Shown: positions 1 through 60,870 of the stretch, one piece after another | How positions within the stretch are numbered: position 1 is the first letter of the stretch | Layout of the letters: each line of letters begins with the position of its first letter | DNA from: Lytechinus pictus | Lineage: Eukaryota | DNA length: 64,000 nt | Reading direction: 5' to 3' | NCBI RefSeq assembly: GCF_037042905.1 | Contig: NC_087250.1 | Coordinates: forward strand, 19,098,001 to 19,162,000 | Notes under the pieces: model-generated | What the model was told of the DNA's origin: nothing | The model's input: the letters and a program-made list of their open reading frames with translations, nothing else | Databases searched by the model: none | Made by a program: the position numbers and the translations under genes

Positions 1-155
1 ATGTTAATTGCACGTGTTCAGGGATGAATTAATTGTTGTTTCACACGACAACAGGGATGCATAAGTACATGAAGATGCTTTTTTTTCCATGTGTGATTCC
101 AGTGAAATACAATGATTTTATTGACATTCTTTATTCTCTTTGTTGTTCTATACAG

Positions 156-8235: not shown

Positions 8236-8556
8236 AGGTCAATTCCACCCAACATCAAGTTTATTCATTCTATTTGGAACAAAGGGGCTACATGAAGAAG
8301 GTCCTGAAAGTCTTGCAAAATACATGTACACAAGAAAGATATTTCCAAATTATGATGACATTGTACATGTACAGCAGTTTTGGAGAGCAGTTATAAAATG
8401 ACATAGTCATAAAAAAATTGGCATCAAGAGACTGCGAAAAAGGTTCTCAATGTCACACCCTTAATGTATATATGTTTTAATTACCTTCAATTTTATATAT
8501 ATTTATATGCGACTTGTATATGTTGGGATCAACTTGATGTTGGGGTGGATTTACTT
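8236..8556. mobile_element. Degenerate MITE, probably Kolobok/T2 type
   Basis: Inverted ends AGGTCAATTCCACCCAACATCAAGTT ... AACTTGATGTTGGGGTGGATTTACTT; the TSD is eroded. Confidence 0.55.
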
Positions 8557-8669
8557 TCGAACTGCACCATTGGAAAAAAAAAATGCTTACAAGGGCTTAC
8601 CCTGTGACCTGCTTACTCAAATGTTCGTGTTATCAGTTTACACGTGTCCATGTATGTTGAAATACATAT

Positions 8670-15585: not shown

Positions 15586-16338
15586 GTGCGTCCCAGAAAA
15601 AACGAAACTGAGATTTATCGATGATTTATCATAACTTAATCACAAATACAATAGACAAGTGACCTACCATTGTAAAGCTTAGTATCTCCTCCTTTATCTG
15701 GAATTACTTGAATTATTTCTCATTCACGCATGAGTGAGCAAAAACAATTTGAAGAGGGGATACTAAAAAGTCATTTAGCAGGTTGTATCTGGGTTTCAAA
15801 AAAGAAAACCCCATTTTCAAAAAGTTCAATATCTGCTCTTAAACTGATACCTCAATTACAGAAAATGGTCAAGAAATAACAAAGTTCTGGTTATTTGAAA
15901 TAAAGCTTGAATTTCAATAATTTCATAAAATAATGAGGCTTTACAGGCTAGCATTCTGAGTCACTCGAACTTCGTTTTGTTGACGATCAGCCATGCATTA
16001 AAGTCTTTTGTAAACCGTGCGATAGCTTCTTTGGGAAACCGGTGAAAACACGTTTATTTAATGAAATTATGGGAATACAAGCATTGTTTCGAGGGAACAG
16101 AACTCTTTTTATTTCTTGACCATTTTCTGTGATTAAGGTATCAAATAAAAGAGCAGATATTGAACTTTTTAGGCATGTGATTTTCTTTTTGAAATTCAGA
16201 TTACCCCCGTCAAATTAGTTTTTGGTATCCTTTCTTCAAATTGTTTTTGCTCACTCATGCGTGAATTGTCTATTGTATTTGTGATTAAGTTATGATAAAT
16301 CATCGATAAATCTCGGTTTCGTTTTTTGTGGGACGCAG
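15586..16338. mobile_element. Foldback MITE (Tc1/mariner-like ends), same family as 24092-24912
   Basis: GTGCGTCCCAGAAAAAACGAAACTGAGATTT ... AAATCTCGGTTTCGTTTTTTGTGGGACGCA, with inverted arms of several hundred bp; high similarity to the copy at 24092. Confidence 0.85.
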
Positions 16339-16489
16339 CTATAGCTAGAAAGCGTGAATAATCATCTAGATTTAACATTCTTAATTTTATGCTACAATAA
16401 ATAAATCAGACTATTTCTTAAATGATAGTCTCAAATTTCTCCAGCCTTAGTTCTGTTTAAAGTTATAATATCGCTAATCTTTCCTACAG

Positions 16490-19400
16490 ATGCAGATAAG
16501 CAATGGGAAAGGATGCGAACATTTCCCCGTGTTTCTTTCGATGATGAATCCGGCTCGGTAAATTTCAATTCGATTTCTATGAATACATATGTTTTCTGAC
16601 GTATTCCCCATTTTTTACATACATTTGCACTGTGTAATTACTTTTTGTACGGTATATAGTAGACTATTCGCGAATTCGGCGTGGACGTAAAGAATTGATC
16701 ATGTCATATAGCAACAGCACATTTCTCAATCTGAAATCTGTGGCAGCAGAGTCGATTTGACAGTCCCATAGGCTCAATACACCAACCTAGAAATGTTCTT
16801 TCCGATGAAGTTTTTTTCTTGATTCGTGTTCCTATGGCGTCCTAGAACAAATTTAGCTTGGTTGCCCAAAGTTGCCGCTTGGGCAATTTTGATAATTTGC
16901 ATGAATTCAAAATTGCCGCCAGATGCCATCTTGAAAAATTGAATTTTGATCCCCTTGCCCAAGAATGCCGAGTAATACCTCTGTTTAGGGGTTTTGGAGT
17001 ATGTAGAATCTCTTTCTGCTTTCTATTTTGCAAGGTAATGTCATCTTCAGGTCAAATCCAAGATGGCCGGCAGATGATGCCATTTTGATAAATTAACTTC
17101 TCAACCCTTTTTCCCAGAATCATGAATAATACCTCTTTTCGTGAGTTATTTGGTATGTTGATTCCATTTCTGTTAATAATTTTGCAATATAGGATCATCT
17201 CCAGATCAATGTGCAAGATGGCCGCTAAACGCCATATTAAAAAAAATACTTCCCGAGACTATTGAACCTTGAAGAAGTACTCTCCCCAATGAGGCTAGTA
17301 TGTATAGGAGCTCAAGTAATGGGATTTCAGTAAGAATTATTCATTTCTTTTAATCACTCCATTTTTAGTTCGAGGTCAAGTCAAATCTAAGACGGTCAGA
17401 TGGTTGATAGATTTCGTCATTAACCGCTCACTTTAGAATGAAAACATTCAAGGTTTGGGCTATGATCTATTTCGGGAGCTTTAATTAATCCTTTTTGTTC
17501 TGTCAAACCATACTTTTCTAGTGAAAGGACTTCAAAGTATTACTTGAATTAAAAAGTGATTTTTCCGTATTTTTTTCCAAAAAATAGTTAACTTACTAAC
17601 TTCTTTTATAATTACCATTGGACTTTTCGTACTGAGCCATTGACTTGGTCAGCAGGAGTGCACTCTTTATAGTCTCCTGCAAAAGTTAGGCTCCCCAAGA
17701 CTGTTCCATGGTCATTTCATTCAATGAGTACACTTTGCTACATCGCTGGAACATCTGGAAGCCTCCCTCAGTTCCTGTGAGCAGTGGCGTGAAGCAAGAA
17801 AGGGTGCGCCTGGCCCTGACACTCTTTGGGATTGCTTCCCCAGTATGCATTTGGCAAATGCAAAGAAGGCTTCTAGGAAACTCTTCAACTTCGACCGACT
17901 AGGTACTAAGCAATGGACAGGATGGTTCCCATTCGTGAGATGTTGTACGGACACGATATCACCCCTGCCTCTCAAGAAGTGGGACTACAAGACCTAGTCA
18001 TATACAGCTACCTGGCCTGTGCATGTAAGGAGTTTGAATCACCCATCAGCCTGTGAGACAGAAATCCTGATCGACTCAAGACACTGATTGTCCTCTAGAT
18101 ACCTCTATCAACAGCATGCAGACGTCTGGTTGTGGTGGACTCCTCACCTACCTATCTGTCTCTAGCTCCCTTTCACTGGACAGGGAGATAAGCACCAGGA
18201 TAGGAAAATCTGTCAGTCATGGCCAAGCTCCTGTACGGAAGTAAGTCCTAGAAAACGTACGCCGACCAAGAAAAGTGGCTTAACACCTTCCATATGTCAT
18301 CTGCGCTTCAAGACAGTGGTTGTGGCATGTTCGCCGCATGAAACCTTGGCGAATCCCTTCTTGAATTTGCCAAGGTAAGGTGAGCTGTGTGATTGGTCTC
18401 ACCCCATCGGTAGATCACACTTCGGTTCAGTGGCGTACCTTGGGTCATGGTATTGGGGGGGGGGCACCAGCAAAAATTTCGAGTCACTTAGTTGCCAGTT
18501 ATACTGACCTAATAAAGATATTTTAAGGACATGCAGTGCCATTAAACGGATATGTATCTCACTGATTAAATAATGCGAGCGCGAAGCGCGAGCTCAAACT
18601 TTTTGATATTCAGAGCTAAAAAGGGACATTATAAGCACATTTTTTGTAATCATGATACGTAACTGTCTCGCTAAACAAACAATGCGAGCGCGTAGCGCAA
18701 ACTAAAATTTTTGTATATATTGACCCTAAACAGGGACATCTTAAGGACTATATTTCCGAATCCATTAAGAGTATAAATATCTCACCATAGTCATCTAATG
18801 CAAGTGCCATCCTTTGCTATCATACGCATCTTACTAATCAAATACTGCAAGCGCGAAGCGCGAGCTGAAAATTTAGGAAATTCAGACCTGAAGGGGGGCA
18901 TTCTAAGGCTTGTTTGTAGGAATTCACTATTAAAGACCCTACGTATTTTACTAACCAAATGATGCGAGCGCGAAGCGCGAGCTGAAAATTTTTGATATTC
19001 AGATCAGAAAAATTGACATTTTAAGGACTGATTATAGGAGTTCATGAAGAGCAGAAATCTCACCAATCCACTAATGCGAACGTAAGCACGGACAGGCAAT
19101 GTTTTATATTAAAACCTTAAAATAGAGCAATCACTTTAAGTAGTCATGAAAAAATAAATGTCACTACATAAAACAATAATAACTGGAATTGCGAGGAAAT
19201 ATATTTGGTGTATATTTATTTGAAAACGGGAGGTTTTAGTACAACAGGATTATATATCTCGTTAAACAGTCTATGCGAGCACCAGGAACAATGAAGACAC
19301 AATGAAGGAAATTATGTTTCATAAAGTTATGAAAGAAATGCTTCTTATATAACATAACATAATATAACATTGTTATGAACAATAATTTTCTTTCTTTTTT

Positions 19401-22400
19401 TTTTGGGGGGGGGCGGCCGATGGGGGGGGGGCACGTGCCCCCATGCCCCCCCCCCCCCCCCCGCAGTTACGCCACTGCCTCTGTTACAGAGACACATACA
19501 AACGTGACATAAAACTCGCCGGCATATACACTAACACTTTTGGAGATGTAGATGATAGTCGCAATTCCATGGAAAGCTACTAAGTGCAGGTGTCAAGACA
19601 TCAGAAAATAGTCGGAATGCTAGATTGGCAGACCAAAGACCTAGCAGGAAAGCTAGGGCAGCATCTCTATCTAAACCTGTCTCAGCGCCATCCTCCTTTA
19701 TCTGTAAAAATTTGCTCTAGAGACTGCCACTCTAAAGCGGAGCTCTACAGTCACTCACGAAAATGTAAGACTTAGCGCTACACCATCGTCTTTTAAGGCG
19801 AATTGAAACCTACCAATCATTGGACACATTGATTAAAAAAAAAAATATTGAGAAAACACTTAAAATAAGACTCTAAGCCTCTTCAGTACAAAAGTATGGA
19901 TGGACAGTAAAACAAATAAAAATACATGCGAAATGTATCATAGCCCAAACCTAAAGAGGATTTATCCTAAGGTGAGCAGTTAATGTCGAAATCTGACATC
20001 TCAGATGTGACTCCATCTTGACCTAAAACTTACTGAAATCCGTTTACATTAGCTCTTACACGTATAAGCCTCGGAGAGTTTTTTTTTCAAGATGGCGGTT
20101 TGCGGCCATCGTAGATTTGATCTGAAGATTATCCTTTATGCAAAATTACAATATTAATTGAATCAACATACCAAATGACTCACGAATAGAATTATTATTC
20201 ATGATTCTAGGACAAAGGGTTCAAAAGTTTATATTTCAAGATGGCGTCATCTGGCGGCCATCTTGGATTTGACCTGAAGATGACATTATATTGCAAAATA
20301 GATAGCAGAAATGGATTCTACACATCCCAAAACCCCGAAACAAAGGTATTACTCATTATTCTGGGGCAAGGGGATCAACTCTAATTTTTCAAGTTGGCAT
20401 CTGGCGGCCATATTGGATTTGACCTGAAGATGACCTTATATTGCAAAAATGATAACAGAAATCGATTCTACACCCCTCTAAACCCCTATAAAGAGTCATT
20501 ACTCATCATTTTGGGGAAAGGGGTTCAAAAGTTAGGTTTTCAAGATGGCATCTGGCGGCCATTTTGGATTTATGCAAATTAGCAAAATCGCCCAAACGGC
20601 AACTTTGGGCAACCAAGCTGAATTTGTTCTGGGACCCCAAAGGAACACGAATCAGGAAAAAAACTTCATCTGAAAGAACATTTCTAGGTTCGGAAAATGT
20701 CAAATCGACTAACATCTACGTCCGCGAACAAGACGGTCAAGATATTAGGACGCACCGCCAGTGTTCCATACCATGAAAGTTGATATGCCAGGCATACTCG
20801 ATACATGCCTCGTCCTGTTTCACTCTACCAACTGAAGGGGAAGGTGGGGGTAAGTTGAGCCATTGTTTGCCTTTTTCCTGATAGAAGTTATATGATTCAT
20901 AATCTTGTGGAAATAAGCACCTTGACTTAGATTTTTGGGAAACACCTTTATACCTACATATAACATTCTACCACCACACTGAAAGTCGCTGTCACCTTTG
21001 GAAAAAAAATACTTGGCTCAAGTTGCCCTACCCATGGGATAAGTTGAGCCACCTTCTGGAGTAAGTTGAGCCACAAGAAGTCAGAACTATGTACAAAAGG
21101 TATGGGACAAGAACCAGCATGACAATTTTTTACTTGGCTCAACCTACCCCAGTCCAAACTTAGTGTGATATTTTCACATCCACATATTCCTTAGGCATCC
21201 ATCATGCAAAAGACTAAAACAAGAATGAGGATCCATACCTGGACTAACAATATTGTTATTATGCCTTCACTATACTTAAAGATGCATATGGGTAAAGCGC
21301 TTATCTATTTCACCCACTTTTGGGGGGGGGCTGAAATTTATATTTTTTCCTCTGAAATTTTTTTATTTTTTGTTTCAACGTTGAAAACAATATGGTGGGG
21401 TTAGGGAGTTATGCAATGGGTCATCAATATATGACACCACTCATTATCGGCCTGGGGGTGGTGGCCTAACTTAAAGTAACCCCGCCTTCCCCTACTGTGA
21501 ACATAGAGCAGGCTTTATGACGTAACTCCGTATTGATCAGTCCACTAGTGGAGTAACAAATGGAAAAGTAGCTGTTTGTTTTTTGCTTTACACCCGATTT
21601 TCATCTTGCCTGTAATAATTCTTGACTCTAATCAGGATAGCAATTAATGAGCAACGTCCTATTATAGTCACTATTTCAATTATGGGCAAAAACTCGAATG
21701 GAGAATATTCAATTGGGCAAGTTAATATTCCAAAAATATTTTTTATTCCAAAATACCTAGGCTCGCATATCATGCCGTACTTTTACAAACATGACACAGA
21801 AGCGAATCTATGAGGTTTTTCGTCATTTCTACGTTTACGATGCTTTTGTGAGAGACGTGCAGACTGGGACACGAGCGATGTTGCAGTCAAGCTTTTCTCG
21901 GGAAGAGGGTCTCCAGCGAGTGACAAAAGCTTTGATTGACAGGCTCATATCTACCGGACAGATGACAGGTACTAAAATTGTATTGTTCTATTTATCATTT
22001 AGAATTTAGCCCTATACCAAATGCAGACGGCCAATTATGCCTCTTCAAATTCAATCCGACCAAAGACAAAATAAAAAAAAACTGCTCGGTAGCGACCACC
22101 TTTGGCTCTTTTCTCCCTGTTTTGATCTTAAAATATGTTTTCTTGACATAAATCTATATTTTTATGTTTGTTCTTCCATCATAATTTTCCTATCTGGAGA
22201 ATTTTTTTGTAGTACGCGTTTTTCTCCTGTTCTTTATTTCATGTCCCTTTTGCTAAAACCTCGGTAGGCCTATCCCCCGTACCACACGCGGAAAGGACTG
22301 AGAGTGGGGTCGTAAGTTATTGCAGAAACTTATTTTTTTTATTTTGTTTCGATAGTAATTTTTGTTTGCATTTGAAAACAATTGCAAGATAAATTTATGG

Positions 22401-25400
22401 ACCAATGAAAAATTATCTGAAATATATAAACAGAAATAAATATATATATCTCTTAATCGGTAGAATCATCATCATGCTTGGTGCCCGCTTACTCATCCCC
22501 TCTCCTGCTCATCCAAGGAGCTTGCCCGCCAGAACTTGGAATCAAGTGCGACACAGTATGCGAGTTTGCTTGCAGTGACAGCAGCTACACATTGGTGGGG
22601 AGTTCTACAATAAGATGCCAGCCAAACGGAACTCTTTCGGATAAATTTCCCCATTGTAAAGGTGCGTGTGTGTTAGCTTGATCAATTAAGTACACTCTTA
22701 TAATAGTTGGGCAAAAAATGCCCAACTCTTTAATAACCCTGGGCAACATACTGTCCACACTAGTATTTTTAGAGCTAAATTTCCCTTGGTGGGTACAGAG
22801 GCTCGCTTATAGCGAGGGCTATTTCATATTAGACGTTGACAGAGGGGTTGACTTCCTGATTTCCTCAGCCAGTGTTCACTGGGTTGAGTTCGGGGTCCGT
22901 TCGGGGTCCGTGGGAACAATTGCTCTCTCAAATGTTAGCTTGGGGAAAGAAATATTTTTTATATCGACGTCCAATCCCGTCCAATCTGGACTAGGCCATG
23001 GTCTTGAAGGGATGCAGTGCCAAGGTCGTTGAGACTCCAAATTCTAGTCTTTCGGATCCTAAAGCCCTACTGTTTTAGAGAACCAACTTTAAAGCACACT
23101 GAATGTTTTGATGAAAAACGTATTTGTTTTCCCTTTCAAAAACGCAAGTTATCACACATTCCAATTCCAAATGAGTGAACTTAACCGATCAGAAATTTAT
23201 TTGGGTTCATCCATCCTCTCCGTCATTGTAGGCCAATGCTCTATCGGAGACAAATCCTCAAGATTAGATCTAATGTCCGATAATTTCCATTCTTTGATTT
23301 CCTCATTATTTCATTAAACAGCAAATGAGGAACATACCACACAGGTCACCACGACAAAGACAACATCTACTCCACATCATGTTGTACACACCACTTTACC
23401 ATCCACGACAACAAATACACATTCCACCCCGAGGAGATTTACCACAAGAACGGCGCAACCTGAAAATGGCACTACACCGGGAAGTCGCACAGGTCATACC
23501 ACACCATCGACAACAGGAATGCCTTCGACGACTGGTTCATCAACTACCTCCGAAGATATTAGTACAACCACACGTTCTCCTACAAAGAAGGACCCAACGT
23601 CAAAGGCGGTACCTACCATGTCTACCAAGGCGGATAGACCTACAGACAAGAGTTCTTCTACTGTGTCTTCTACAAGTTCTGTTCCTGGCTTGCCCCATAG
23701 TAAGTTCTGCGATGTTCGGAAACAGACAAATTCTCGACCTGTTTTTCATCCTATGTTTCTTCCCCCCGACGCATAATGCAAGGTATATGCCCCCCTTCCT
23801 CCCAAAATCCTGGATCCGCCCCGTCTCCATCACAATCTCACCTCCTAAAAACAATTTTGCCTACAGATCTTAAAAAATGCTGAGTGAATACATATTTCAC
23901 ATAAATATCTCGGGTGGTATTCTGAGATCTATTTTATCTTAGAAGAAAATATTTATTCTCCGTTAAAATAAGTGAGATAAATACCCTTAAAATCTCTCCG
24001 AATTTGTATTCTAAAAACCATTTGATCTTCATTTTATCTCTGTAAGACACCTATTTTTGAAGCAATATCCAATGAGAAATGCGGTTTTATACAGTGCGTC
24101 CCACAAAAAACGAAACCGAGATTTATCGATGATTTATCATAACTTAGTCACAAATACAATGGACAAATGACCCACCATTGTAAAGCTTAGAATTTCCTCT
24201 TTCATCTGAAAGTACGAAGATTATTTCTAATTCACGCATGAGTGAGCAAAAACAATTTGAAGAGGGGATACCAAAAAGTCATTTGGCGGGCTATATCTGA
24301 GTTTCAAAAAGAAAACCACATTTTCAAATAGTTCAATATCTGCTCTTTAATTTGATACCTCAATTACAGAAAATGGTCAAGAAATAACAAAGTTCTGGTT
24401 ATTTGAAATAAGGCTTGAATTTCAATAATTTCATAAAAATTAAGAGGTTCTCCAGGCTAGCGTTCAAACTCACTTGACACTCCGTTTTGTTGACGATCAG
24501 CCATGCATTAAGTCTTTTGTAAACCATGCGTAAGCTTCTGTGGGAAACCGGTGAAAACACGTTTATTTAATGAAATTATGGAAATGCAAGCATTGTTTCG
24601 AGGGAACATAACTATTTTACTTCTTGACCATTTTTTATGATTAAGGTATCAAATAAAAAAGCAGGTATTGAACTTTTTAGGCATGTGATTTTATTTTTGA
24701 AATTCAGATACCACACGCCAAATGAGATTTTGGTATCCTTTCTTAAAATTGTTTTTGCTCACTCATGCGTGAATAGGGAATAATCTAAGTAATATCAGAT
24801 GAAAGAAGAGGTTCTAAGCTTTACATTGGTAGGTCATTTGTCTATTGTATTTGTGATTAAGTTATGATATATCCTCGCTTAAACTCGGTTTCGTTTTTTC
24901 TGGGACGCACTGTATAGCTCTCTCATCTCATTCAACCAATGAAAATCCATTCCTTTATCAAAATGCCATTTCGACATTTTGATGGGTGTCACGTGACGTA
25001 TTGCATGAGGAATCTGCTGCGATATTACGATTCGTGACAGGTGACGTAATGTATCGTCATGTGTCAGAAAGCTGTGGTAGTAATGGACGGTCAACACATA
25101 ATGCCACATTCTGCAACAATGATAATTTGATCGTTGGCGTTGCATTGCCGGTAGTAGCAGAACCTCTCAATGCAAAGGTTTCTTAATATACAACTGGTTT
25201 AAATTTCTTGCCTGTATTTATGTAATAACAATATGTTCCTTTGAATAGCGCAGCTACTATAATTGCATATACTCTACTGAGCTTGATACTTGGTATCATA
25301 TCATTTACCCCGGCTGTAGCTGAGGCGCCGTATTGTCGCTAAAGCATTCAAGGAATAAATCCTACCGGGTACCATTCACCTCACCTGGATTGAGTGCAGC

Positions 25401-28400
25401 ACAATGTGGGTATAACTAAATTTCTTGCAGAAGGAAAACACGCCATGGCTGGGATTCGAACCCACGTCTCTCTGATTGAAAGACGAGAGTCGTAACCACT
25501 CGAACACGACGCCCTCACATTTTTTTTTAATGCAAGCTTAAATAAATGTCACGCGTACTAGTATTTGAAATTAGGGTGATATGATATCATCATAACCGTT
25601 AAACGTGTATTGTAGCCGGGTTTTTTTTTCTTCATTTCAACCGACAACAACTACAACAACAACTACAACAACTAAAGCACCCGCCACCACTAAAAAAATT
25701 ACTTCGATCAATGTCGTTTCGTTTTTCTTTTAGGATTCAGTTCGTTGGCATTCATTGGTTTATCGGGAGTTCCTCTACTTCTTCTGCCAGTGATTTTCGC
25801 TATATACAAATTAGTTTACAGACACCGCAGGAAAAAGGTAACCGTACAATACATTTTGAATAATTTTCCTTTAAAATAACTATATCCCCCCCTTCTCGCT
25901 CGAAACTGATATTTTTGGTCTAACGCATTAAATTACAGTAATAACGAATGCATGCGTTGTATATGATCAGGTCCACTTATTCCAATATGTATATGTTTGA
26001 TGAAAGTATCATACTAAATAATTAGGGCTTTGATTACTGTGCAAAGAATACATGAACTGTGCTCTCAAACTTATTTTTGGGATGTGGCAATTGTAGCATT
26101 TTGGTTTTGAACATAAATGATGAAGATTATAGTATTATCAGTAATGTATTTGCCGAAAGTAATGAACTTTTTCGTCCCTTCCTCTTATTTTTTTCTTCCA
26201 GATATACACATTCCCAAACCCCAACCCTAAAACAGAACACGAAACATTGGATATCCTCCTAGTTTTGAGTAAATGGTTTCTTTTTTTTTTCTTACGATAA
26301 TTACAGAACACGATAATGAAACCGATTACTGTTAATAATGTTAATGCTTAGTACAATTTCCACCTTTATTTGCAGTATTTGATACTTGATGAAACTTCGG
26401 GGGAAGATGATTTAGATGGTGAGTACATCGATGTAAAAAAAAAATGGATATAGCAACAACGCACTCCTTGAGGCCACCGGAAACGCTAAAAAAGTATGAT
26501 GGTGGTCCCAAAGTCTGCGCACCTAACGATTTTAGTTAAGATTTAAATTAATTTCTTTTTATTTCACAAAATCTATCAGTTGATAATGTTTCTTGTATTA
26601 TTATGAGTGTGCCAAATATAAAAAAATTGAAAGAAAAATATGATTTTCTTGGAAAAAAAAACCTCGGGCAGTCATTTTCAGACTGAACAAAAAAAATGGT
26701 GCCCTATGACTACACACCCATTCACTTTGTACGCCCCTCGGGGATTTTGATTAGAAAGGCTGCATTTTGAGACTGTCAAATGTACATGAAATGCCCCCGG
26801 TTCATTATTTTCCACCATTTTGAGTCGGAGTTTTTTAAAATTAATATCTGTACTGCATGTGTATAGTGTTCGTTGCGTATCTTCTTTTATTAGAATTACG
26901 CATATGCACAAAACAAGGGGGACTGCGCAGACTTGGGGGAACTCGCCAGAATAAAAAAAAAGGTGAAGCGCGCACAAAGTTCCACACTTTTCGCTTCCAT
27001 GTGCATGTTTTTTTTTTCATTATTAGCGTTGGCATGGTCCTATATACTGTTGATCGTTCAAGATTGTGTGTGCACAACGAGCTCTATCCATTTTTTTTTA
27101 AATCAATGGGTAACATTATCTTCTCGCTCTCACATACCACGAAGGTACGAAGGCTAATGGTTCATTTATTTCACTGCTCACTTACGACGGACTTGAATTG
27201 AGTTTAATTGAACTGGTTTATTAAAACCAACACAAAGAGGCAGCTCTCAGGCTGAATAACAAAATCAGGAGAAATTCTATAATTATGAAAAGGTAAGACA
27301 CAAATCATGAAGCAGGTTACTTAAAAATTATATCTAAAAATTGATAAAATGCAAAATGGTAATGAAATAAGATAATAAATGAATAATTAGTCGGGGTTTT
27401 TTTTATAAGAGTTTGATATCAAAATACAGAAACAAAAAAATGGAGCGAATCCAACAATAATATATAGATATACAATCCAAAAAGTGTATGATCAGTTAAT
27501 ACCTAAATCAGTGTAATTGATTTAGATAAATAATAAAGAAACCGTTGAAAAGATTAAATTGGATCCCAATTGGAGCTCAATTTTAAAAAAATGCGGTTCT
27601 ACTTAATACTCCAATACTTCATTTTTTAAAAGAAAATAGTCCTGTAATCCTTCCATTATCACCATACTGTAGGACCCATATAACAGAGCATAAAATCCAG
27701 TATGTCGTAATTTGAGTAATATTTTTAGTACATGTAGTAATACTAGGACATACAGAGTATTAGGCCATGTGTGTCTTTCCCTCTCTCCCTTCCTCTCTCT
27801 GTCTATCTCTCTCTCTCACACACACACTTACATTTTCTCGACCTTGCTCTTTCTCACACACACACACACACATACATTTAATTCTATTTTTTTGTCGTGT
27901 CTTGTTCACACAGACGTTCCATTTGATTGCGATGGATCCTATACCGCCCAAGAAATCAAGCAAGCCATCCTGACAGATATGTCTATAGAACTGAACCGGA
28001 AAATGGTAATTGCTTTTATTTTGTATCAGATGTTTCTATCCTGTTCTCTTATTATTATTATTATTATTGTACTTCTTCTGCTAGTTCTTCTCCTTCTCCT
28101 TATTCTATTATTTTTTTTCATTATTATCATCTTTACGATCATCATTACTATTCTTCTTCTCTTCATCCTTCTTCTTCTCCTTCTTCTCCTTCCCCTTCTT
28201 CTTCTTCTTCATCTTCCCGGGGGGGGGGGGAATACTTGTCTTGTTTCCAATACTTGTTAAGGGTGCATTTTCAGAATATGGAAAATATGTGTTTAGTGTG
28301 CTTTTCGAGACCCCGTGGTCGCGCATGGTATCCACTCGTCAATGGAAGTGGCCCCCCGGGCTTCTTCCCCTTCTTCTTCCCCATCCTCCACCACTGAGGT

Positions 28401-31400
28401 CGGAGATCAGTAGCAGGGTGATGATGCATGAAGGGGTGCCCATCAGCAATCAATATATGGCATTTCATGGCATTAATCTATGAAATTGTGGTTTTATTAA
28501 TGACAACCTGTATGACTGTATGGCATTTTGGATACAATGATTGGACCTGAAGTGACATTATAGTCCTTATTCTGAAGTCGGGTTTAACTTAAACTCGGGT
28601 TTAAAAATGTGGTTTAAGTATGGATAGACAACTGTTACATAAATTACTAACAGTAGAGATATCATATTTCAGCTCACTTGGCTCTCAACTCTCAAGTTAT
28701 TCATAATTGTCCAGGAAGTATACATAGATGATTATCTTCACCATTGAAGAATCAGGAAAGAGCACAGTAAATGTAAGAAATATACAACTTAATAAAATTT
28801 TTGAGATATTGGCTTCCCATTATTTTATCATAGAGTTAGACCATGGTTTAAGTTCACCCTGTCTTCAGGATACGGGCCATTGCGCCCATTTAGAGAAAGA
28901 GCGGATATTATTGATGCAATGTTAAGAAAAATAAATGAAGGGCTGGGTCTCAAATGTGTGTTTGAAATTGGTTGCACGTAGAGTTGTGTATGGAGTTTCG
29001 GTTTAATTATTTCTGAAGTGGGGCCCTGACTGACAAAGCTAGATACTAATTGTAAAGATGAAATTAAAGGGATGGTCCAGGCTGGAGATATTTATATATC
29101 AATAAATAGAGTAAAATTCACAGAAAAATTGATCAAAATCGATAACAAATAACGAAGTTATTGAATTTTAAAGATATGCATTATTCAGGTGAAACAGTTC
29201 TAGGCAGGTCTTCATGCATGTTCATTAGGTGGGCTGATGATGTCATATCCCCACTTGTTCTTTTGCATTTTATTATATGAAATTTTTCTACCAAGAACTA
29301 AAACAATTGGATTGACAACTGATTAAATGCATTAGTTATTTATTTCCGCGACTAATTTCATCATAATGGAGACATATCATTTACACATGTATGAAAAAAT
29401 GAAACAATTATGATTTCATGTAATAACATAATAAAAAAGAAAGTGATGTGACATCATTAGCACACCTAATGAAAATTTATGACGATGTGCATATAATTGT
29501 TTTCACAAAATATTGATAAACTTAAAATTCAATAACTTTGCTAGTTGTTATCTGATTTTGATTAAATTTTCAGCATTTTGCTTTGTGAATTCTATTCTAT
29601 TTATTTAGATATAATTATTTTCAGCCCGGACCATCCCTCTAAAATGTCGAAAACGCATTGCACACGGTAATAGAAAATAGGTGTCAAAATATAACAGATT
29701 ATGTTAGGTGATTGTTTGTAATTTCTGTGGTTTATTTGATGATTTTTTTCAACTTCTGGTACCTTCTGGTCTCTTATTACATCATACTATCTTTTAGTGC
29801 TACGCCATGGACAAACCAGACAAGGGAGTTGCTTTCATCTTGAACAACTACATATTTGATACCTACAGAGCGAATGAAAGGAAGGGATCTGATATTGATT
29901 TGATCAACGTGAGGCATGTCTTTAAGGAGATTGGATATGCCCCTGAAGAAGCTCAAAATCTAACTGCTGAGGTAATACTTTTTGCCTATGAACTATGTGA
30001 ATATTGAAGTACCCTCCCCCCCTCCCCCATTAAGTTATAATTGCTGATCCTATAGACACACTTTCTTACATCTTACGTACAACACGCTCCTGCGACCTCA
30101 GTGACCCACACACGTTACTTTGTGAATTCATCCAAATTAGCAAAATCCACACCCACACGAACACACTAACCATTAGACACATAGCTTATCCCTTCCAGTA
30201 TGTGTACCCCACGCCCTCACTCAACACACTCACATCCACGCTGACCCTAGAAAACACAGATTTGTATCTATTCAGCATGCGCACTTCACACCCACACACA
30301 CCCACTAACCCTACAAGAAACACAGATGTTGTATTTATAACAGCATGTATACGCGTACCCCACACCCTCACCCACACACAACCAATTACCCTTAGAAACA
30401 CAGAATTGTATCTATTTCAGAATGTGCACCCATATTGTCACACTCACGCTGACCCTAGGAAACACAGACATATGTATCTATTCTAGCATGTGCACCCCAC
30501 GCCCTCACCCACACACACCCACTCACCCTAAGAAACGCAGACCTGTGTCCATTCCAGCATGCACATCTAACACCCTGACCACAAGACACACTGGATTGCA
30601 TATACTAGTATCCATTCCCATACAGCATGCACATCCCACACAAACACACACACCCTCCCTCTTTCAACACACCCCGCTGACCCTTCTCTGTGTTTTACTC
30701 ACCCACCCTAATCAGGTTAAGAACAAAGAGAGAGAGAGGGGGAGGGGAAAAGTGGTTGGGAGGGGAGGCAACAACATATGTACATGCATATTTATATATC
30801 TTTTCATTTCTCGTTTACCGTGTATCCTTATCCCGATCTAGAGAAGAGGTGTTATGTAGAAAATTTGGATATTATCTAAATAAACCATGGAGGTAAAAAA
30901 TTTAGGTAAATGAGTATTAACCTTGTCAATATGCATTTTTGTCTCCCCTGTATCAAACACGCCGAAGTTCTTAATCGTCTTAAATAAGATATATAAGAGT
31001 GCGTCCCACAATAATGATAGATTTAACAATTATTAAATATATTGTTTACTATAAATTTGATACTCATGGCAAAATTGGAATCTCATCCCGAATTTGAAAC
31101 CAACAGCCAAGCACATCGTTCACGCATGTCAGATTACAAACAATAAAAAAATATTGACGCTTATTAGAAACGATCTGCGCAGAAACTTACGTGTATATCT
31201 TAATCCACTCTCATTTCAGGGATCGTCGAACAAGCACGGTCGTCGTATCTTGAAGAAAGATAATTGAATTATATGATTATGTAAATAAAATATCATGATT
31301 TATTTGCCTTCGAAGAAAAAAAGACATGGGTAATCCCGGTTTTCTTTTTTTCTGAGACGCACTGTATACATACATACCCACACCAACACATGTATATATA

Positions 31401-34400
31401 TGTATATATATATATATATATACATATATGTGTGTGAGGGTGTGTGTGTGTGTGTGTGAGTGTGCGTGGGTGTGTGTGTATATAAAATTTGAAATACAAA
31501 ATATACTGAATGTTTGATGTGAATGTCTTAAGGGTCTGTGGCTGATTCGCCAAAGGAGAATTTGATATTAACCTCTATATCTTCTTGTCATTTTTTTCAA
31601 AGGAAATAAGAATGGAGCTAAATAGCTTAAAACAGAAAATCCTGCCCTCCCACACCTCAGTCGTCTTGGTCTTCATGAGCCATGGGGTTCCAGAGGGCAT
31701 TCTTGGTACTGACCAGAAGGTCGTAACCGTCGAGGAAATCAAGAACATGTTCTCGGGGAACAACTGTCAAGCCTTGATCGGAAAACCAAAGATCATGTTC
31801 TTTCAGGCCTGCAGAGGAGGTAATTATGCAAGAAAGGGCCCATGCCCACCCCCTTCCCCCTATAAAAAAAAAATGTTGTATTTCCCCCTGCAATAATGCA
31901 AACATTTCATATACTTCATAGGATGTGAATTCATCGTATCAATTTATTTCGATTCAGTGGAGCCTTATCATAAAAAATTATATCTTTATATTTCATATTA
32001 TAAAATACAAAGAGTCTGTATGTGATATCGGCTCCCTTGTTCATGTCATTTGCATACTGACCTAGATGTGTACATATAACTGCTTTGTAAAATTAAGTGA
32101 AACTACAAAAATGGCTCACCTTTCTGACCTTAACATCAGCTTTTGGGGGGTTTTCAGTTACATGCTTACCTCTCGTTTTCCCCTATTTGTTCAAATCATC
32201 TTATTGTTTATGGACTTATAGCTTTTATAAGAGTTTGGAGACAGGGAACAAATTTGATGGGTAAATCGATAATATTGAACCTATTATTCAATTTTAACCA
32301 ATCATATATCTTATATGTGCATGTGAAAGCAATTGCCACCAACCATGGACCTGTACGACCACACACCATCAAACCGAGGACGTTAATTTCGTAATACGTG
32401 GACAGTACTCAATTCTGTAGACACTCTAAATGCTTCAAATCCAATTCAGAGGGCGCTACAGCACTGTAAAATAGTAAATTGTATTCTCCCCTATCATACC
32501 CGGATGCAACTCACAAGTGTCCACTCTTGTAAGAGTGTGTGTCCCCGCTTTCCTACGTTATGGCAGGGAGCCTGTTGTACCTTTTCGTCTTTCTTTACAG
32601 ATAAAGTTACTCCATGTGCTTCCTCGAATAACACACCCCCTGAAGCAGGGACCGAGAAGTGCGATGGCATCGTGAGCACTGATGGGTTAACACGTGGTGG
32701 AAGAGTTGCACTGGCCACAGACGATGTGGAAAGTTTGAAACCAGATGGGTCCATGGACAAACCATCACCTGGTAACATCAAAAGAAGTGAGGTGGATACG
32801 GACGGTGGGGTACCAGATAATGCCGATGTCTACATTGCTCATGCTACTTCAGAAGGTAAGCGCAGTGGTTTATTCTCATTTGGTCCAATGTCAATTCGTC
32901 GAATATCCACATGGTCTAATTGCCATTTCGTCTAATAGCCAGTTGGTCCAATATCCATTCAATCTGTACACCATTTGGTCTAATTAGACTTAATGTTAAT
33001 TGTGCAAAATGAATGAAAATAAAATGGATATTAGACTAACTGGTTACGAGACGAAATGGTCATAGACGAACTGGTGACTCGACGAAGTGATGATTTGACA
33101 GTGGACGAATTGGCAATTTACCAGCGTGGTAAGGGAGAATAGAAAGAGAGGAAGAGAGTGGAGTTTCTATATAGTTTGGCTCTTACCAAGCTTACGAAAG
33201 AGTGGACCTCCCAAGGCTTGTGTGGGATTGTAAAGATATGTGTGAGAGATAGAGGGAGGGGGTAGAGAAATATGGTGTATCAGTTAGGGGCGGCGGCCAG
33301 GGGGCACTAGGATTTGGATGGGTAAGCGTGTACGTGTTGCCCCAAAAATATGAAACCACACCCTTGACAACGGACGTTGGGGGCTCTTTGGCCCACTGCA
33401 AATGGGGCGTTTGAGAACTGGAATTTAACATGAAATGAGGGTCTTTAGAACTGACGACTGAAATGAGCGGCTAAAGAACGGGATGGTCAATGAAAAGTGA
33501 TGAAAAATTATATGCTTGGGAACTTCTAGCTAGCAAGGCGTTAAAAGGGGGTCTTAATTGTAAAAAAATACTGTCGCTATACGTCAGTGCCGCCCCCTCC
33601 CCCCCCCCCCGAGGCCCACGGGTGAGATGAGTGATAGGTCTTGTGTGGGGGTCGTAAAGATATGTGGGAGAGGAGGAGGTAGAGAAAGATGGTTTGTATG
33701 TTAGGGGGAAGGACGTGAGTAGACATGTGTGTTACGGTGGGCATGATCGGTGTGCCATACTGATTTTTCTATATATTTATAGTTAACAAAATTATATTGC
33801 AAAGTGAGGCCCAGAGAGTATTAATTTGAGAGGTGCAGCCAGGAAATAATTACACACAGGAACACATTCATGATGATATGACGTAGAAGATGAGCTCACT
33901 AGGTGAAAGGAGAGGGGGAGGGGGCTAATGGAGCATTCCAAGCAGTGGCGGATAAAAGTAGAGGCACATTCCCGGACCGTGCCCCTACCCATTTTGTGAG
34001 GCATACATAATATTTCTTTTTGTCGAATATGTCGTGTCTACGCAAGTGGGGACATTCCTTCTTTTCTTTTTTTTTTGCTTGTCAAACTTTTCCTGAAACA
34101 AAATGACCTGCATTTTGGAGTGAAAACATTCTATTATTTTTTTGTTTGTAAAAAAAAAATCCCTTCCATAAATCACCATTAATTGGCGGTGAAGACCTTT
34201 TTGAGGGGACTTATTATATTTCGTAAAAAATCCCCCAACTTTTTAAAACCTTTGGTCCCCCCCCCTCATTATTTTAAACTTAATCACAATCTTTGAATTA
34301 ATTGCTAAATTTACAATTGATTGCTCGTCTACTACTTGCGACAAGTATAAATTGATTTGTTTTCGTTACGATTTACGTATAACTTTTATATTTTCAATTG

Positions 34401-35546
34401 ACGGTGTGAGAGGAGGCAGACAGAGAGGGTTGGTAAAAAGAAACACTACAAAAAGGGAAGGACAAAAGAACGTTTAAGTTAATGAATGCCATCGTATCTC
34501 TTATGTAATGACATAAGCTCAGAACCCCGTCTTACGAAGAGTTGCGATTGATCTGATCAATCTTACCTCAATAGAAATCCATCAATGTCATAATTTTTTT
34601 TATACAGAAAATATGCACAATGTATTTTTGGAAACAAAGGCCACGCTTAACGATTAAGAAAACAATAAAAGTATGAAATATACATCATATCTAAATATAC
34701 ATATATTTTGAACAAACATGAATTTTAGTTGTTGACGTTACTGGCTTTCCATAGTTGTGGCTGATCGGATCAATCGTAAGTCTTTGTAAGACATGGTCCT
34801 GGTTAACTTTGCAAAATGTTCTTCGATTGGCAGGCTATTTCTCGCTACGTGACAAGCAAAACGGATCGTGGTTCATCCAAGCCCTTTGTGAGGAGTTAAT
34901 CGCTAGTGCGCATGCCCATCATCTTGATGACATCATGATGAATGTGAGATGTCTGTCAATATTTTGTCTCCTTTTATTAAACCTATATTTTGGGTCTATT
35001 TCTATAATAATCATAATTGATAATAAATATATCTGCTTTTTACTTTATCAGAAGTCTCTAAGTGCTCTCAAGTAATGCAGCAGAACAATGATCACGTATG
35101 GCGTTATATTTTATTTTTTAATCAATAAAGAGCGGTTCTTTTGTGGAAAAATATATGAAAATGGGTAGTTTGAAATTTCGAAACCCGTTTGCACTGTATA
35201 TTATTTGTCGTAGAGACTATCACATTATTTGTAAGGTTTGCATTAAAACAGATCTTTATTTTTAAGATGCTGAATAAACGTAATAAAATAAACTCATTCT
35301 GGATGAAAGGTGAAAAAGAGATACTTAAATGAATAATACAAATATCTTTATAAAATATGATGCATGCAGGTAACAGATAGAGTAAAGCAACACGAAGCTA
35401 ATATTGTGGTAAGAGGAAAACGAAGACTCACTCTACAGACCCCGCAGATTGTCAAACAAGGAATAGGAAAGAAGATCTACTTCTTACCAAAATATCAACC
35501 GGTGCACCGACGATCCAAGGCCACTGAACTTAAGTCTCATTTGTGA
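16490..35546 (+). CDS. Predicted single-pass membrane caspase (N-terminal domain - sushi/CCP - mucin stalk - TM - caspase p20/p10), 5'-partial, ~674 aa
   Basis: Exons with start-end phases: 16490-16557 (1-0), 21761-21968 (0-1), 22464-22661 (1-1), 23322-23699 (1-1), 25734-25837 (1-0), 26376-26418 (0-1), 27914-28005 (1-0), 29798-29971 (0-0), 31603-31819 (0-1), 32601-32855 (1-1), 34834-34943 (1-0), 35370-35546 (0-stop). All junctions are AG/GT, all phases are compatible, and there are no internal stops. The start/signal-peptide exon was not found. Confidence 0.72.
17670..19815 (+). pseudogene. Decayed RTE-clade non-LTR retrotransposon RT fragment, split by a MITE
   Basis: Frameshifted remnants VSSGVKQ.RVRLALTLFGI and a C-terminal C..C.RDCHSKAELYSHSRKC, typical of RTE/BovB-like ORFs; many stops. 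Confidence 0.65.
18428..19477. mobile_element. hAT-like non-autonomous element
   Basis: TIRs CAGTGGCGTA.C / GTTACGCCACTG; 8 bp flanks CTTCGGTT / CCTCTGTT (6/8 match, degenerate TSD); internal GCGAGCGCGAAGCGCGAGCT repeats. Confidence 0.75.
20846..21151. mobile_element. Small MITE
   Basis: GGGGTAAGTTGAGCCA ... TGGCTCAACCTACCCC, with internal AAGTTGAGCCA copies. Confidence 0.55.
22464..22661 (+). CDS. Sushi/CCP (complement control protein) domain exon
   Basis: Encodes C...CDTVCEFACSDSSYTLVGSSTIRCQPNGTLSDKFPHCK, the CCP pattern with Leu in place of the usual Trp; symmetric phase 1-1 exon. Confidence 0.85.
23322..23699 (+). CDS. Thr/Ser/Pro-rich mucin-like stalk exon
   Basis: 126 open codons (NEEHTTQVTTTKTTSTP...STVSSTSSVPGLPH), bounded by ACAG| and |GTAAGT, phase 1-1. 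Confidence 0.8.
23912..25190 (-). mobile_element. Partial PIF/Harbinger-like MITE related to 48007-48816, interrupted by a foldback MITE; right boundary approximate
   Basis: 23912-24090 and 24913-24955 match the reverse complement of ~48595-48816. Confidence 0.65.
24092..24912. mobile_element. Foldback MITE with CAGTG termini (Tc1/mariner-like)
   Basis: TA|CAGTGCGTCCCACAAAAAACGAAACCGAG ... CTCGGTTTCGTTTTTTCTGGGACGCACTG|TA, with long inverted arms. Confidence 0.9.
25240..25514 (-). mobile_element. tRNA-derived SINE
   Basis: The - strand head GGGCGTCGTGTTCGAGTGGTTACGACTCTCGTCTTTCAATCAGAGAGACGTGGGTTCGAATCCCAGCCATGGCG has Pol III A and B boxes and is followed by a non-tRNA body. Confidence 0.7.
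25734..25837 (+). CDS. Transmembrane exon with basic stop-transfer sequence
   Basis: Encodes FSSLAFIGLSGVPLLLLPVIFAIYKLVYRHRRKK; strong acceptor TTTTTCTTTTAG| and donor AAG|GTAACC. Too short to appear in the ORF track. Confidence 0.8.
28040..28215. repeat. (ATT)n/(CTT)n low-complexity microsatellite
   Basis: Direct reading of the sequence. Confidence 0.9.
28562..28878. mobile_element. MITE (Harbinger-like ends)
   Basis: GTCCTTATTCTGAAGTCGGGTTTAACTTAAAC ... GTTTAAGTTCACCCTGTCTTCAGGATACGGGCC inverted ends. Confidence 0.6.
29068..29638. mobile_element. Kolobok/T2-type MITE
   Basis: TTAA|AGGGATGGTCCAGGCTG ... CAGCCCGGACCATCCCT|CTAA (TTAA TSD with one mismatch). Confidence 0.8.
29798..35546 (+). 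CDS. Caspase (peptidase C14A) catalytic domain, five exons
   Basis: Motifs YAMDKPDKGVAFILNN, RKGSDID, FMSHG (catalytic His), GKPKIMFFQACRG (catalytic Cys), ADVYIAHATSEGYFSLRDKQNGSWFIQALC, QTPQ and KKIYF. Confidence 0.95.
30998..31364. mobile_element. Degenerate short relative of the CAGTGCGTCCCA MITE family
   Basis: GAGTGCGTCCCACAA at ~30998 and TGAGACGCACTGTA at ~31352-31365. Confidence 0.5.
34522..34799. mobile_element. MITE
   Basis: CCCCGTCTTACGAAGAGTTGCGATTGATC ... GATCAATCGTAAGTCTTTGTAAGACATGG inverted ends. Confidence 0.65.
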
Positions 35547-35849
35547 GCTTGCAATTTAAGACGGGGTTTCAGGAATGCCCGGCATCTGTCAGGAACGGTC
35601 AAGGGTCAAATCAAATGTTGAAGGAATCGATCTTGTCAATACTACCCAGTACATAATCAAGCTATCTTTTTTTTCCACTGTTACTTTTTGTGTAATACGC
35701 TGTAAAACTCTGATTACTATATGAACTATAGCTGTTAAATAGTTCAAACAACTCGAGGTTAAACAACTAGGGGAATGTAATAGTTTAAGCTATTAAATAA
35801 GTTTAGTTGTACGATAAATGTGTTCATAATTTAGCACATTCTTACCTTC

Positions 35850-60831: not shown

Positions 60832-60870
60832 TCTTCGACCTAAGGGGATGCCAAATTGTTCTCGAATCTA

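Follow-up and report, generated by a model that had tools for sequence, protein, structure and literature searches.

Location and exon structure of the gene

We analysed a stretch of 64,000 nucleotides from the sea urchin Lytechinus pictus (G000:C6:19098001-19162000, plus strand, in an 812-Mb assembly), here called the window. Its plus strand carries, between 16490 and 35546, twelve exons of LOC129262862. This is very probably one real gene, encoding a type I single-pass membrane protein with an intact caspase dyad and S1 pocket that belongs to an echinoderm clade. The architecture consists of a putative signal peptide, a family-specific alpha/beta domain (the N-domain), a CCP/sushi module, a mucin stalk, a transmembrane helix, the basic run RHRRKK, an acidic linker of 45 residues and a caspase-3/6-like domain. 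Exons are numbered 1 to 14, counting two coding exons that lie upstream of the window.

The ectodomain begins within the window at exon 3 (16490..16557, phase 1 to 0), which holds an internal Met at 16513 and was placed by its AG/GT borders and by tblastn with the related proteins P0003 and P0016. Exon 4 (21761..21968, phase 0 to 1) encodes the core of the N-domain in 69 codons, with RNA contig pieces at 21760-21966. The end of this domain and one CCP/sushi module with six Cys are found on exon 5 (22464..22661, phase 1 to 1; RNA pieces 22462-22659), followed by the mucin-like stalk, recognised by composition, on exon 6 (23322..23699, phase 1 to 1; RNA pieces 23320-23699). Exon 7 (25734..25837, phase 1 to 0) carries the transmembrane helix and then the basic stop-transfer sequence RHRRKK, as read from hydropathy and from an AlphaFold2 (AF2) model.

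Two small exons form the linker. Exon 8 (26376..26418, 43 nt, phase 0 to 1, with AG/GT borders) gives a juxtamembrane YxxL-D-E and an acidic run, and exon 9 (27914..28005, 92 nt, phase 1 to 0) contains the motif D-x-D-G-x-Y, which reads D-C-D-G-S-Y in the window gene. The caspase large subunit starts in exon 10 (29798..29971, phase 0 to 0; Pfam Peptidase_C14; RNA pieces 29797-29969). It continues in exon 11 (31603..31819, phase 0 to 1), where alignment with caspase-3 places the catalytic His (SHG) and Cys (QACRG). Exon 12 (32601..32855, phase 1 to 1) encodes an intersubunit linker of 69 residues, 9 of them Asp, and the start of the small subunit. The small subunit is continued by exon 13 (34834..34943, phase 1 to 0; GSWFIQALC) and ended by exon 14 (35370..35546), with the stop codon and a 3' untranslated region that reaches to at least 35816 (RNA contig pieces 35368-35816).

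The initial annotation had listed these twelve AG/GT exons, with their phases, as a single stop-free frame, and rebuilding them from the DNA gave the same result. All 12 acceptors read AG and all 11 internal donors GT, and the joined exons give 673 sense codons and a single terminal stop. Read in either of the other two frames, the spliced sequence is riddled with stops. The junctions 25837/26376, 26418/27914 and 28005/29798, around the two small exons, are also as described there. From the first Met (16513), the spliced product is letter-identical to the RefSeq protein XP_063957181.1 (P0015, "uncharacterized protein LOC129262862", 666 aa), which rules out chance as the origin of the exon chain.

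Exon 11 is 100% identical to P0001 and P0002. A protein search with this SHG...QACRG exon gave L. pictus matches at 99-100% identity (14 proteins at E <= 0.001 among 26 candidates), including a 297-aa "caspase-3-like" model and 666-667-aa models named "uncharacterized protein LOC129263184". Long and short relatives from L. variegatus, Strongylocentrotus purpuratus and Diadema were also returned.

The 5' end and a tandem copy

The start of the gene at 16490, as first annotated, did not hold. The exon at this position begins in phase 1 behind an acceptor and is therefore internal, with two coding exons upstream. These were located through LOC129263184, a near-identical neighbour (the twin), which a whole-genome search mapped to C6:19016525-19042292, on the same strand and about 76 kb upstream of the window. 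Isoform X1 of the twin (P0016, 737 aa) has 71 extra N-terminal residues, opening with a hydrophobic, signal-peptide-like stretch, and tblastn found them not to be encoded within window positions 1-16489.

The whole-genome search revealed second copies of two segments of the twin, the exon-1 region at C6:19077265-19077960 and exon 2 at C6:19091610-19091738. The former contains exon 1 of the window gene (G000:C6:19077290-19077350, plus strand), 20.7 kb upstream of the window and with ATG and frame intact. The latter is exon 2 of the window gene (plus strand), 6.4 kb upstream, with intact AG/GT borders. The donor of exon 1 is GC and not GT in both tandem copies (context G/GCGAGT, the slash marking the exon border; twin exon 1 at C6:19016525-19016585). 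Together with the 12 window exons, the two upstream exons form an open reading frame of 2214 nt and 737 codons with no internal stop, and its product is identical to twin isoform X1 at 695 of 737 positions. The gene thus spans 56 kb with 14 coding exons, all but the first two of them in the window, and is the downstream member of a tandem pair.

Over its 14 exons the window copy has 13 intact acceptors and 13 intact donors (12 GT and the one GC shared with the twin), and both copies keep every splice site and the open frame. They differ at 66 of 2214 coding positions, with a synonymous divergence (dS) of 0.040, a nonsynonymous divergence (dN) of 0.028 and a dN/dS of 0.68; such a number of differences is too low for regional dN/dS conclusions. 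Exon 12, with the intersubunit linker, is the most divergent (17/255 nt), and the strongest constraint is seen in the small subunit, where dN/dS is 0.14 on 3 differences. The introns are much larger in the window copy, which spans 56 kb against 26 kb for the twin.

Ectodomain, stalk and transmembrane helix

The putative signal peptide was recognised by Kyte-Doolittle hydropathy, with a peak of 1.61 for the N-terminal hydrophobic stretch from the upstream exons and of 1.64-1.78 in the relatives P0016, P0018, P0005 and P0010. The N-domain encoded by exon 4 is 46-58% identical to paralogs and orthologs. An AF2 model of the twin, made from an alignment of 10 sequences, has a mean predicted local distance difference test (pLDDT) score of 42.6 overall and block values of 47-89 for residues about 60-220. 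The model places a helix, four strands and a second, long helix at 62-150, short strands at 169-222 and a further helix at 351-380. The N-domain core has an alpha-beta4-alpha order with block pLDDT 47-87, and the stalk shows no structure (pLDDT about 27-32). A model of the ectodomain alone (6 sequences) had a mean pLDDT of 43, was unusable and was discarded.

In terms of Pfam domains, Peptidase_C14 and a partial Sushi are the sole matches of P0015 at E <= 0.1. The Sushi match (PF00084) scores 21.1 bits against a cut-off of 20.7 and covers profile positions 23-56 of 56 only. Scores are 19.6-20.3 bits for P0016, P0003 and P0005 and 15.3 for P0018, and P0006 and P0010 have no match at E 0.01. Clear Sushi matches (6e-18) are present in the Diadema relatives. 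The module of the window gene contains six Cys, and it has Leu at the Trp position of the Sushi consensus, with its pattern of four Cys and a Trp. A search of 1.84 billion representatives with an ectodomain profile gave 231 matches at E <= 0.001, mostly to the last 50 positions of the profile only; six scanned proteins from these matches contain 2 to 28 Sushi repeats.

The fold is clearer than the sequence. When the AF2 model of the twin was compared with 48,161 chains by VIA-align, CCP modules made up 28 of the 50 rows, aligned to residues about 158-225; the model has block pLDDT 75-89 over residues about 130-220. These matches have Z 6.0-8.4 and a root-mean-square deviation (rmsd) of 1.7-4.2 A over 58-70 aligned residues, and include CD46, factor B, C2, beta2-GPI, CR2, E-selectin, DAF and factor H. 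Another 16 of the 50 rows are caspases or a paracaspase. For the fold of the N-domain, the 50 rows contained only two at Z 6.0 (profilin and a dsRNA-binding-domain complex), which is within noise. The sushi domain that had been annotated is thus a clear CCP by fold, and borderline by sequence.

Two further structural searches were of less use. Foldseek against pdb with the twin model returned caspases only, with poor TM-scores, owing to the low confidence of this model in its caspase part. Sushi-type clusters in the ESM Atlas were found at 0.88, below the 0.9 line, and are a lead only.

The stalk (residues 153-277) is 58% Ser/Thr/Pro over its 125 residues. P0015 has a single transmembrane peak, with a 19-residue Kyte-Doolittle value of 2.38 at residues 282-300, followed by YKLVYRHRRKK. 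Four full-length relatives have an N-terminal hydropathy peak as well as the transmembrane peak. Three N-x-S/T sequons, the CCP fold and the stalk all lie N-terminal of the helix, and the positive-inside flank is predicted to put the C-terminus in the cytosol. Helix, basic flank and acidic linker all agree with the initial annotation, the linker having 12 acidic and 3 basic residues among its 45.

Caspase domain and linkers

Peptidase_C14 is found in P0015 with E 1.7e-48 and 165.8 bits, against a cut-off of 21.4, and all 7 distinct family proteins scanned pass as well. Among the best 60 of 164 matches in a PDB sequence search, 52 are caspase-3 (best E 5.2e-30) and 8 are caspase-6. MSHG and QACRG align with LSHG and QACRG of caspase-3, and both are kept in 8 of 10 aligned family members, the other two being Diadema pseudo-caspases that lack both. 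In the S1 pocket, ERKGS stands opposite SRSGT of caspase-3 and FSLRD opposite YSWRN, and QACRG retains its Gln; the Arg, Gln and Arg of this pocket are the residues that select Asp at P1. With an intact His/Cys dyad and S1 pocket, the caspase is predicted to be catalytically competent.

The 69 residues between QACRG and the small subunit offer candidate Asp sites, several of the 9 Asp standing before Gly, and Asp-Gly sites are present in both the juxtamembrane and the intersubunit linker. The Y, L, D and E of exon 8 are invariant in 6 of 6 camarodont sequences. In exon 9, D403, G404 and Y406 are invariant across 10 aligned echinoid sequences, with D401 present in 9 of the 10. A reading of DxDGxY as a hemITAM or TRAF6 site was dropped, as the Tyr spacing and the hydrophobic and acidic positions misfit across the 10 sequences.

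Pfam scans of 15 distinct proteins, all of them membrane-anchored or otherwise related members of the family, gave no CARD, DED or Death match at E up to 0.01-0.1. Among the 15 is the product of the window gene, for which the absence of CARD or DED between membrane helix and caspase had been noted from the start. The window gene therefore has no initiator-type death-fold domain, and its nearest similarity, among the PDB matches listed, is to effector caspases. Its N-terminal part is not a short soluble effector prodomain, since 427 residues including the transmembrane helix precede the caspase domain in the 737-aa form.

An echinoderm family

The same architecture is annotated in five echinoid species: L. 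pictus, L. variegatus, S. purpuratus, Diadema antillarum and D. setosum. Paralogs and relatives in other echinoids, within the range that the initial annotation had suggested to search, therefore exist. In L. pictus it is found in the twin, the window copy and LOC129280876 on contig C2, in L. variegatus in LOC121408581 (717 aa) and in S. purpuratus in LOC105439692 (726 aa). The proteins of the two Diadema species (P0038, P0173, P0174 and P0175; 721-831 aa) have two or three clear Sushi matches. The family counts at least 3 loci in L. pictus, and D. antillarum has at least 5 models. The exon blocks of the window gene recur in the C2 paralog within 16.5 kb, 2.6 kb separating the transmembrane exon from the first caspase exon, and so do all 13 intron positions.

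Identity between paralogs is 50-64% in the N-domain, 69-76% in the CCP module, 48-68% in the transmembrane helix and 42-54% in the linker from the membrane to the caspase (a comparison that spans species too). It falls to 28-36% in the stalk and also in the intersubunit linker. That the membrane-to-caspase linker is more conserved than the stalk was counted in favour of the unity of the gene.

Two members, P0042 (D. antillarum) and P0172 (D. setosum), have MTTG in place of MSHG and LQTVPW in place of FQACRG, conserved in both species. They keep the signal peptide, N-domain, sushi, stalk, transmembrane helix, linker motif and caspase fold, and appear to be catalytically dead pseudo-caspases. 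The L. pictus protein P0178 ("caspase-6-like", 507 aa) combines four N-terminal hydrophobic segments and a Cys-rich stretch with the motif ISPDVDGYY and an intact caspase, and would be a second kind of membrane-anchored caspase in this genome.

A protein of the sea star Acanthaster planci (P0183, 634 aa) has a hydrophobic stretch at the N-terminus and a segment YDA..TD..TG that resembles the N-domain, besides further hydrophobic segments, PDNLGLY and a QACNG caspase. Comparison with the ectodomain profile (hhalign) gave a probability of 18% and E 1.3e-3 over 54 columns around YDA-x-TD-x-TG, so that the resemblance is suggestive only. The protein is a probable relative of the family.

We built a maximum-likelihood tree of 27 caspase domains, all from our own searches, with one caspase-12-like row as the sole vertebrate reference and no rows dropped afterwards. 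The 18 echinoderm rows form a clade with support 93/87. The sea-star protein is at the base of this clade, followed by the multi-pass P0178 (98/95), both below the sushi-bearing forms. The placement of the sea-star protein is uncertain because its branch is long (1.69).

Short "caspase-3-like" models that start at the exon 10 Met are found in 4 species. In older RefSeq annotation the paralog appears as two models, 'mucin-2-like' (312 aa) and 'caspase-3-like' (287 aa), and the L. variegatus ortholog is split into 163-aa and 327-aa models on one contig. The transmembrane exon and the two linker exons are already part of the old 'mucin-2-like' model, whose end runs on into the intron. The short and split models look like partial models of these genes, and separate short isoforms may exist.

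Some further forms were also seen. Two D. antillarum models, P0176 and P0177, lack stalk and transmembrane helix and have a sushi-like module directly before the linker motif and caspase; in P0176 another caspase domain precedes these parts. Perhaps the two gene models are merged or skip exons, or else the family has a soluble branch. In the distant caspase P0199 (660 aa, an ENA metagenome/assembly record), a segment ahead of the catalytic domain (253-281) is strongly hydrophobic, and caspases with a membrane anchor may occur outside echinoderms.

RNA contigs across the exon junctions

The RNA data are Logan contigs from four runs of one study (X1-X4, for which the label "RNA" is a guess), aligned to window positions 16000-35900. 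In three of the four runs, contigs skip the introns and pass from the ectodomain exons to the caspase exons (X1 record 1, X2 record 5 and X3 record 9); X4 gave shorter spliced contigs only. X1 record 1 (2123 nt) aligns at 21760-21966, 22462-22659, 23320-23699, 29797-29969, 31601-31817, 32599-32853 and 35368-35695, with 238 letters between 23699 and 29797 and 110 between 32853 and 35368. The 238 letters and one ambiguous border base make 239, which equals 104+43+92 nt, the lengths of the transmembrane exon and the two small linker exons. The 43 nt of exon 8 are needed, because the 239-nt bridge requires that length.

X2 record 5 goes from 23699 to 29797 with 241 letters between. X3 record 9 (2851 nt) goes from 23699 to 31601 with 414 letters between, and has 339 further letters upstream of 21760. 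Both gaps are at most 3 letters off the expected exon lengths. The three small exons, exon 13 and exon 3 (16490) are not among the contig pieces listed, and no inference is drawn for them. No contig was seen that joins the two upstream exons to the window copy. In a whole-genome search the exons were each matched separately, with no multi-exon (intronless) match, and since the genome holds no processed copy we take the contigs to be spliced RNA.

The mismatches of X1 record 1 in five exons (4, 4, 7, 1 and 17) are exactly the differences between the window copy and the twin in the same assembly. Only X4 record 12 fits the window copy. It has 0 differences to it over 23320-23504 (185 nt), ending at the exon border at 23320, and at least 2 differences to the twin fall within the first 148 nt of this stretch. 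The three junctions that the initial annotation had named for a transcript check lie in the part of the gene that the spliced contigs span, with the twin or a twin-like allele and not the window gene as their origin.

The introns (16196-16405, 24015-24170 and others) hold a short interspersed repeat, whose minus- or plus-strand translations share a HKKRNRDLSMIYHNL stretch. Very deep cover by RNA contigs is seen on these repeats in the bins 16.0-16.7, 24.0-25.9 and 28.0-29.9 kb.

Other features of the window

Next to the gene, on its downstream side, is a satellite array of 7 kb (40756-47835) with a strong AT skew, made of units of about 113-153 bp and showing higher-order periods of 226-379 bp. 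Most of the last 14 kb is filled by arrays of a 27-bp G-rich minisatellite (50315-63453) with a consensus like GGGGGCGCCAAATTGATGTTCGAACTA, a GC content of 43-51% and a GC skew of about +0.18 to +0.3. Upstream of the gene, at 1964-4048 on the plus strand, there is an open frame of 694 codons with a Ser/Pro-rich start and a Cys-rich core. Its sole Pfam match is a weak MULE transposase (E 0.045, below cut-off), and it is probably a transposase-derived gene or element. On the minus strand, a frame of 144 codons (13952-14386) has a Cys-rich segment that matches P2RX7_C (E 7e-5, 23.3 bits against a cut-off of 23.5); a motif of this kind is common in repeat-borne open reading frames. A reverse-transcriptase fragment at 38369-39313, also on the minus strand, is a remnant of a non-LTR element (RVT_1, E 1.3e-14).

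Comparison with known systems

Caspase activation follows, in the textbook order, a receptor, a death-fold adaptor and an initiator caspase. The statement in the initial annotation that no animal caspase is itself a membrane receptor was too strong. Amphioxus TNFR-caspase and LRRs-caspase (QACXG), reported in 2008, are transmembrane hybrids with an extracellular recognition domain and an intracellular caspase; their transcripts were recovered, and a shortcut from recognition or an extracellular signal to apoptosis was proposed (Zhang et al. 2008, Genome Biol 9:R123, PMC2575513). With these hybrids the window gene shares a transmembrane protein, a recognition ectodomain, an intracellular QACxG caspase and an origin in an invertebrate deuterostome. 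It differs in having an N-domain, a CCP/sushi module and a mucin stalk in place of the TNFR or LRR ectodomain, and in its echinoderm lineage. There was no TNFR or LRR Pfam match in the family proteins scanned. The likeness to the amphioxus hybrids is one of architecture and perhaps of working; as far as the Pfam matches show, the urchin protein is not of their gene family.

Literature searches returned no functional study of the amphioxus hybrids or of the urchin family. Xu et al. 2011 cite 31 caspases in sea urchin and 45 in amphioxus (PMC3196919), and the available portions of PMC3196919, PMC2779465, PMC2246300 and PMC13736523 make no mention of membrane-anchored urchin caspases. No paper on the echinoid family was found in full-text searches whose scope excludes the urchin apoptosis survey of Robertson et al. 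2006 and the supplements of PMC2575513. The echinoid membrane-caspase family is present in RefSeq as unnamed models, and is new against the amphioxus hybrids in its ectodomain, its effector-like protease, its dead paralogs and its conservation across echinoids.

With the effector caspases-3, -6 and -7 the window gene shares SHG, QACRG, the S1 residues and the absence of a death-fold prodomain (caspase-3 E 5e-30). Effector caspases have a short soluble prodomain, whereas the window product in its 666-aa form has an N-terminal extension of 356 residues with a transmembrane helix, and its 69-aa intersubunit linker is several times as long as that of caspase-3. The complex formed by death receptor, FADD and caspase-8 (DISC), with cFLIP, offers an inferred, purely functional analogy, in that clustering of a receptor at the surface would switch on a caspase and a dead paralog (Diadema P0042/P0172) is a possible partner. 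It differs from the window family, which has no TNFR, death domain or DED in Pfam scans and would hold all functions in one chain.

CD46, DAF/CD55, CR1/CR2 and the selectins share the CCP fold (residues about 159-223, Z up to 8.4, rmsd about 2 A). In CD46 and DAF, CCP modules sit on a Ser/Thr/Pro-rich stalk above one transmembrane helix, as in the window gene. Unlike all of these, the window gene has one divergent module and a protease as cytosolic tail.

Proposed mechanism and alternatives

We tentatively favour clustering-driven self-activation with release at a juxtamembrane Asp, and give this reading somewhat less than an even chance. Recognition would fall to the N-domain and CCP module, with the stalk keeping them at a distance from the membrane. 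A multivalent ligand or surface, once bound, would cluster the chains and raise the local concentration of cytosolic zymogens, which could then pair and cut each other in the long linker (e.g. VSTD/G or VDTD/G, the slash marking the cut). A cut at the juxtamembrane Asp (e.g. DCD/G) would set the active protease free in the cytosol. A single polypeptide would serve as receptor, adaptor and caspase, and the catalytically dead Diadema paralogs would act as cFLIP-like partners that tune pairing.

This reading is preferred on four grounds: the length of the linker, the conservation of the recognition modules, the existence of dead paralogs and the precedent in amphioxus. Long intersubunit linkers are a feature of initiator caspases that can turn active on dimerisation. 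The conservation of dead paralogs in two Diadema species is easiest understood if the pairing of caspase domains matters.

Several observations weigh on the other side. Effector caspases normally exist as dimers from the start and become active when an upstream caspase cleaves them, not through dimerisation. A catalytic domain nearest to them (52 caspase-3 and 8 caspase-6 among the best 60 of 164 PDB matches) therefore weakens induced dimerisation, and leaves the adaptor-free death-receptor model as one of at least two live mechanisms. The low confidence of the caspase part of the AF2 model allows no structural inference on the dimer interface. The release site is not universal, as PDNLGLY of the sea-star relative has Leu and no Asp at P1, so that the DxDGxY motif may be a docking or structural element. 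As for the window copy itself, its first exon ends in a GC donor and its RefSeq model starts at an internal Met, without a signal peptide. The bridging contigs, given their mismatches, come from the twin or a twin-like allele, and prove the architecture for the twin and not expression of the window copy. Constraint on this copy is not established, because its dN/dS of 0.68 rests on only 66 differences.

A membrane-parked executioner is possible, if on balance rather doubtful. Here an already dimeric effector zymogen would be cut by soluble caspase-8/-9-like initiators in the intersubunit linker and at the juxtamembrane Asp. Cleavage would activate and release the enzyme, or keep its activity local, and the ectodomain would serve sorting, turnover or surface placement. 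The ranking of caspase-3 and then caspase-6 among the PDB matches listed, the lack of a death-fold domain and the Asp-Gly sites in both linkers are as expected for such an enzyme, and the conserved juxtamembrane YxxL presumably resembles a sorting signal. P0178 has the same linker motif and caspase behind a different, multi-pass N-terminus, which suggests that anchoring, and not a particular ligand, is the conserved feature; it and the sea-star form also branch below the sushi-bearing forms in the tree. However, the N-domain and CCP module are 50-76% identical between paralogs, far above the stalk, which argues for a specific binding function. The linker of 69 residues is much longer than those of effector caspases, and a simple substrate zymogen would account less readily for the dead paralogs.

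A role outside cell death appears improbable. The protein would be a surface recognition or adhesion molecule, with the caspase domain as a regulated local protease or a protein-interaction module. It could cut cortical or signalling substrates in phagocytosis, fertilisation or development, or act on other caspases as a decoy or regulator. Caspases are known to have functions outside apoptosis, and such a role would suit the dead, otherwise conserved members in two Diadema species, the resemblance of the CCP module to complement regulators and selectins, and an expansion (at least 3 L. pictus loci and at least 5 D. antillarum models) typical of immune or recognition genes. Against it, the window gene keeps its dyad and S1 pocket intact, and dN/dS in the small subunit is 0.14, on 3 differences.

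Very improbable is an artefact, be it neighbouring mucin-like and soluble caspase-3-like genes joined by read-through or model merging (as the split models of 312 aa + 287 aa and 163 aa + 327 aa, the exon 10 Met models in 4 species and in-frame Mets before the caspase domain might suggest) or a decaying duplicate (given bridging RNA from the twin, a span of 56 kb against 26 kb and the dN/dS of 0.68), since the three small exons are traversed in frame by RNA contigs, conservation at the protein level, with whole-codon indels, is seen for the 43-nt and 92-nt exons across species including Diadema, all 13 intron positions recur in the C2 paralog, the old 'mucin-2-like' model contains the transmembrane and both linker exons, and the window copy has no stop or frameshift, intact splice sites and a match to X4 record 12 with 0 differences over 185 nt. 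That ectodomain, membrane helix and intact caspase belong to one gene, as initially proposed, is upheld by the RefSeq identity, the twin RNA contigs, the 14-exon C2 paralog and the occurrence in five echinoid species.

Taken to its full extent, the clustering reading would describe an echinoderm adaptor-free surface death or immune receptor, ranging from urchins to probably sea stars. Its CCP ectodomain would sense a ligand (a microbial surface, a complement-like fragment or another cell), clustering alone would fire the caspase, DxDGxY would release the enzyme and dead paralogs would be cFLIP-like brakes. In this complete form we consider it possible and rather unlikely.

Significance for the family

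Several urchin RefSeq models named 'caspase-3-like', 'caspase-6-like', 'caspase-2-like' and 'mucin-2-like' are pieces or mislabelled forms of these genes, and their annotation is corrected here. The one-chain family offers a test of whether membrane clustering alone can fire a caspase. Its dead paralogs, the multi-pass-anchored relative and the tandem copies, which differ mainly in the intersubunit linker, are natural controls for pairing versus cleavage, and L. pictus embryos, coelomocytes and genetic lines are workable. If the receptor reading is true, these proteins could link outside signals directly to cell-death proteolysis.

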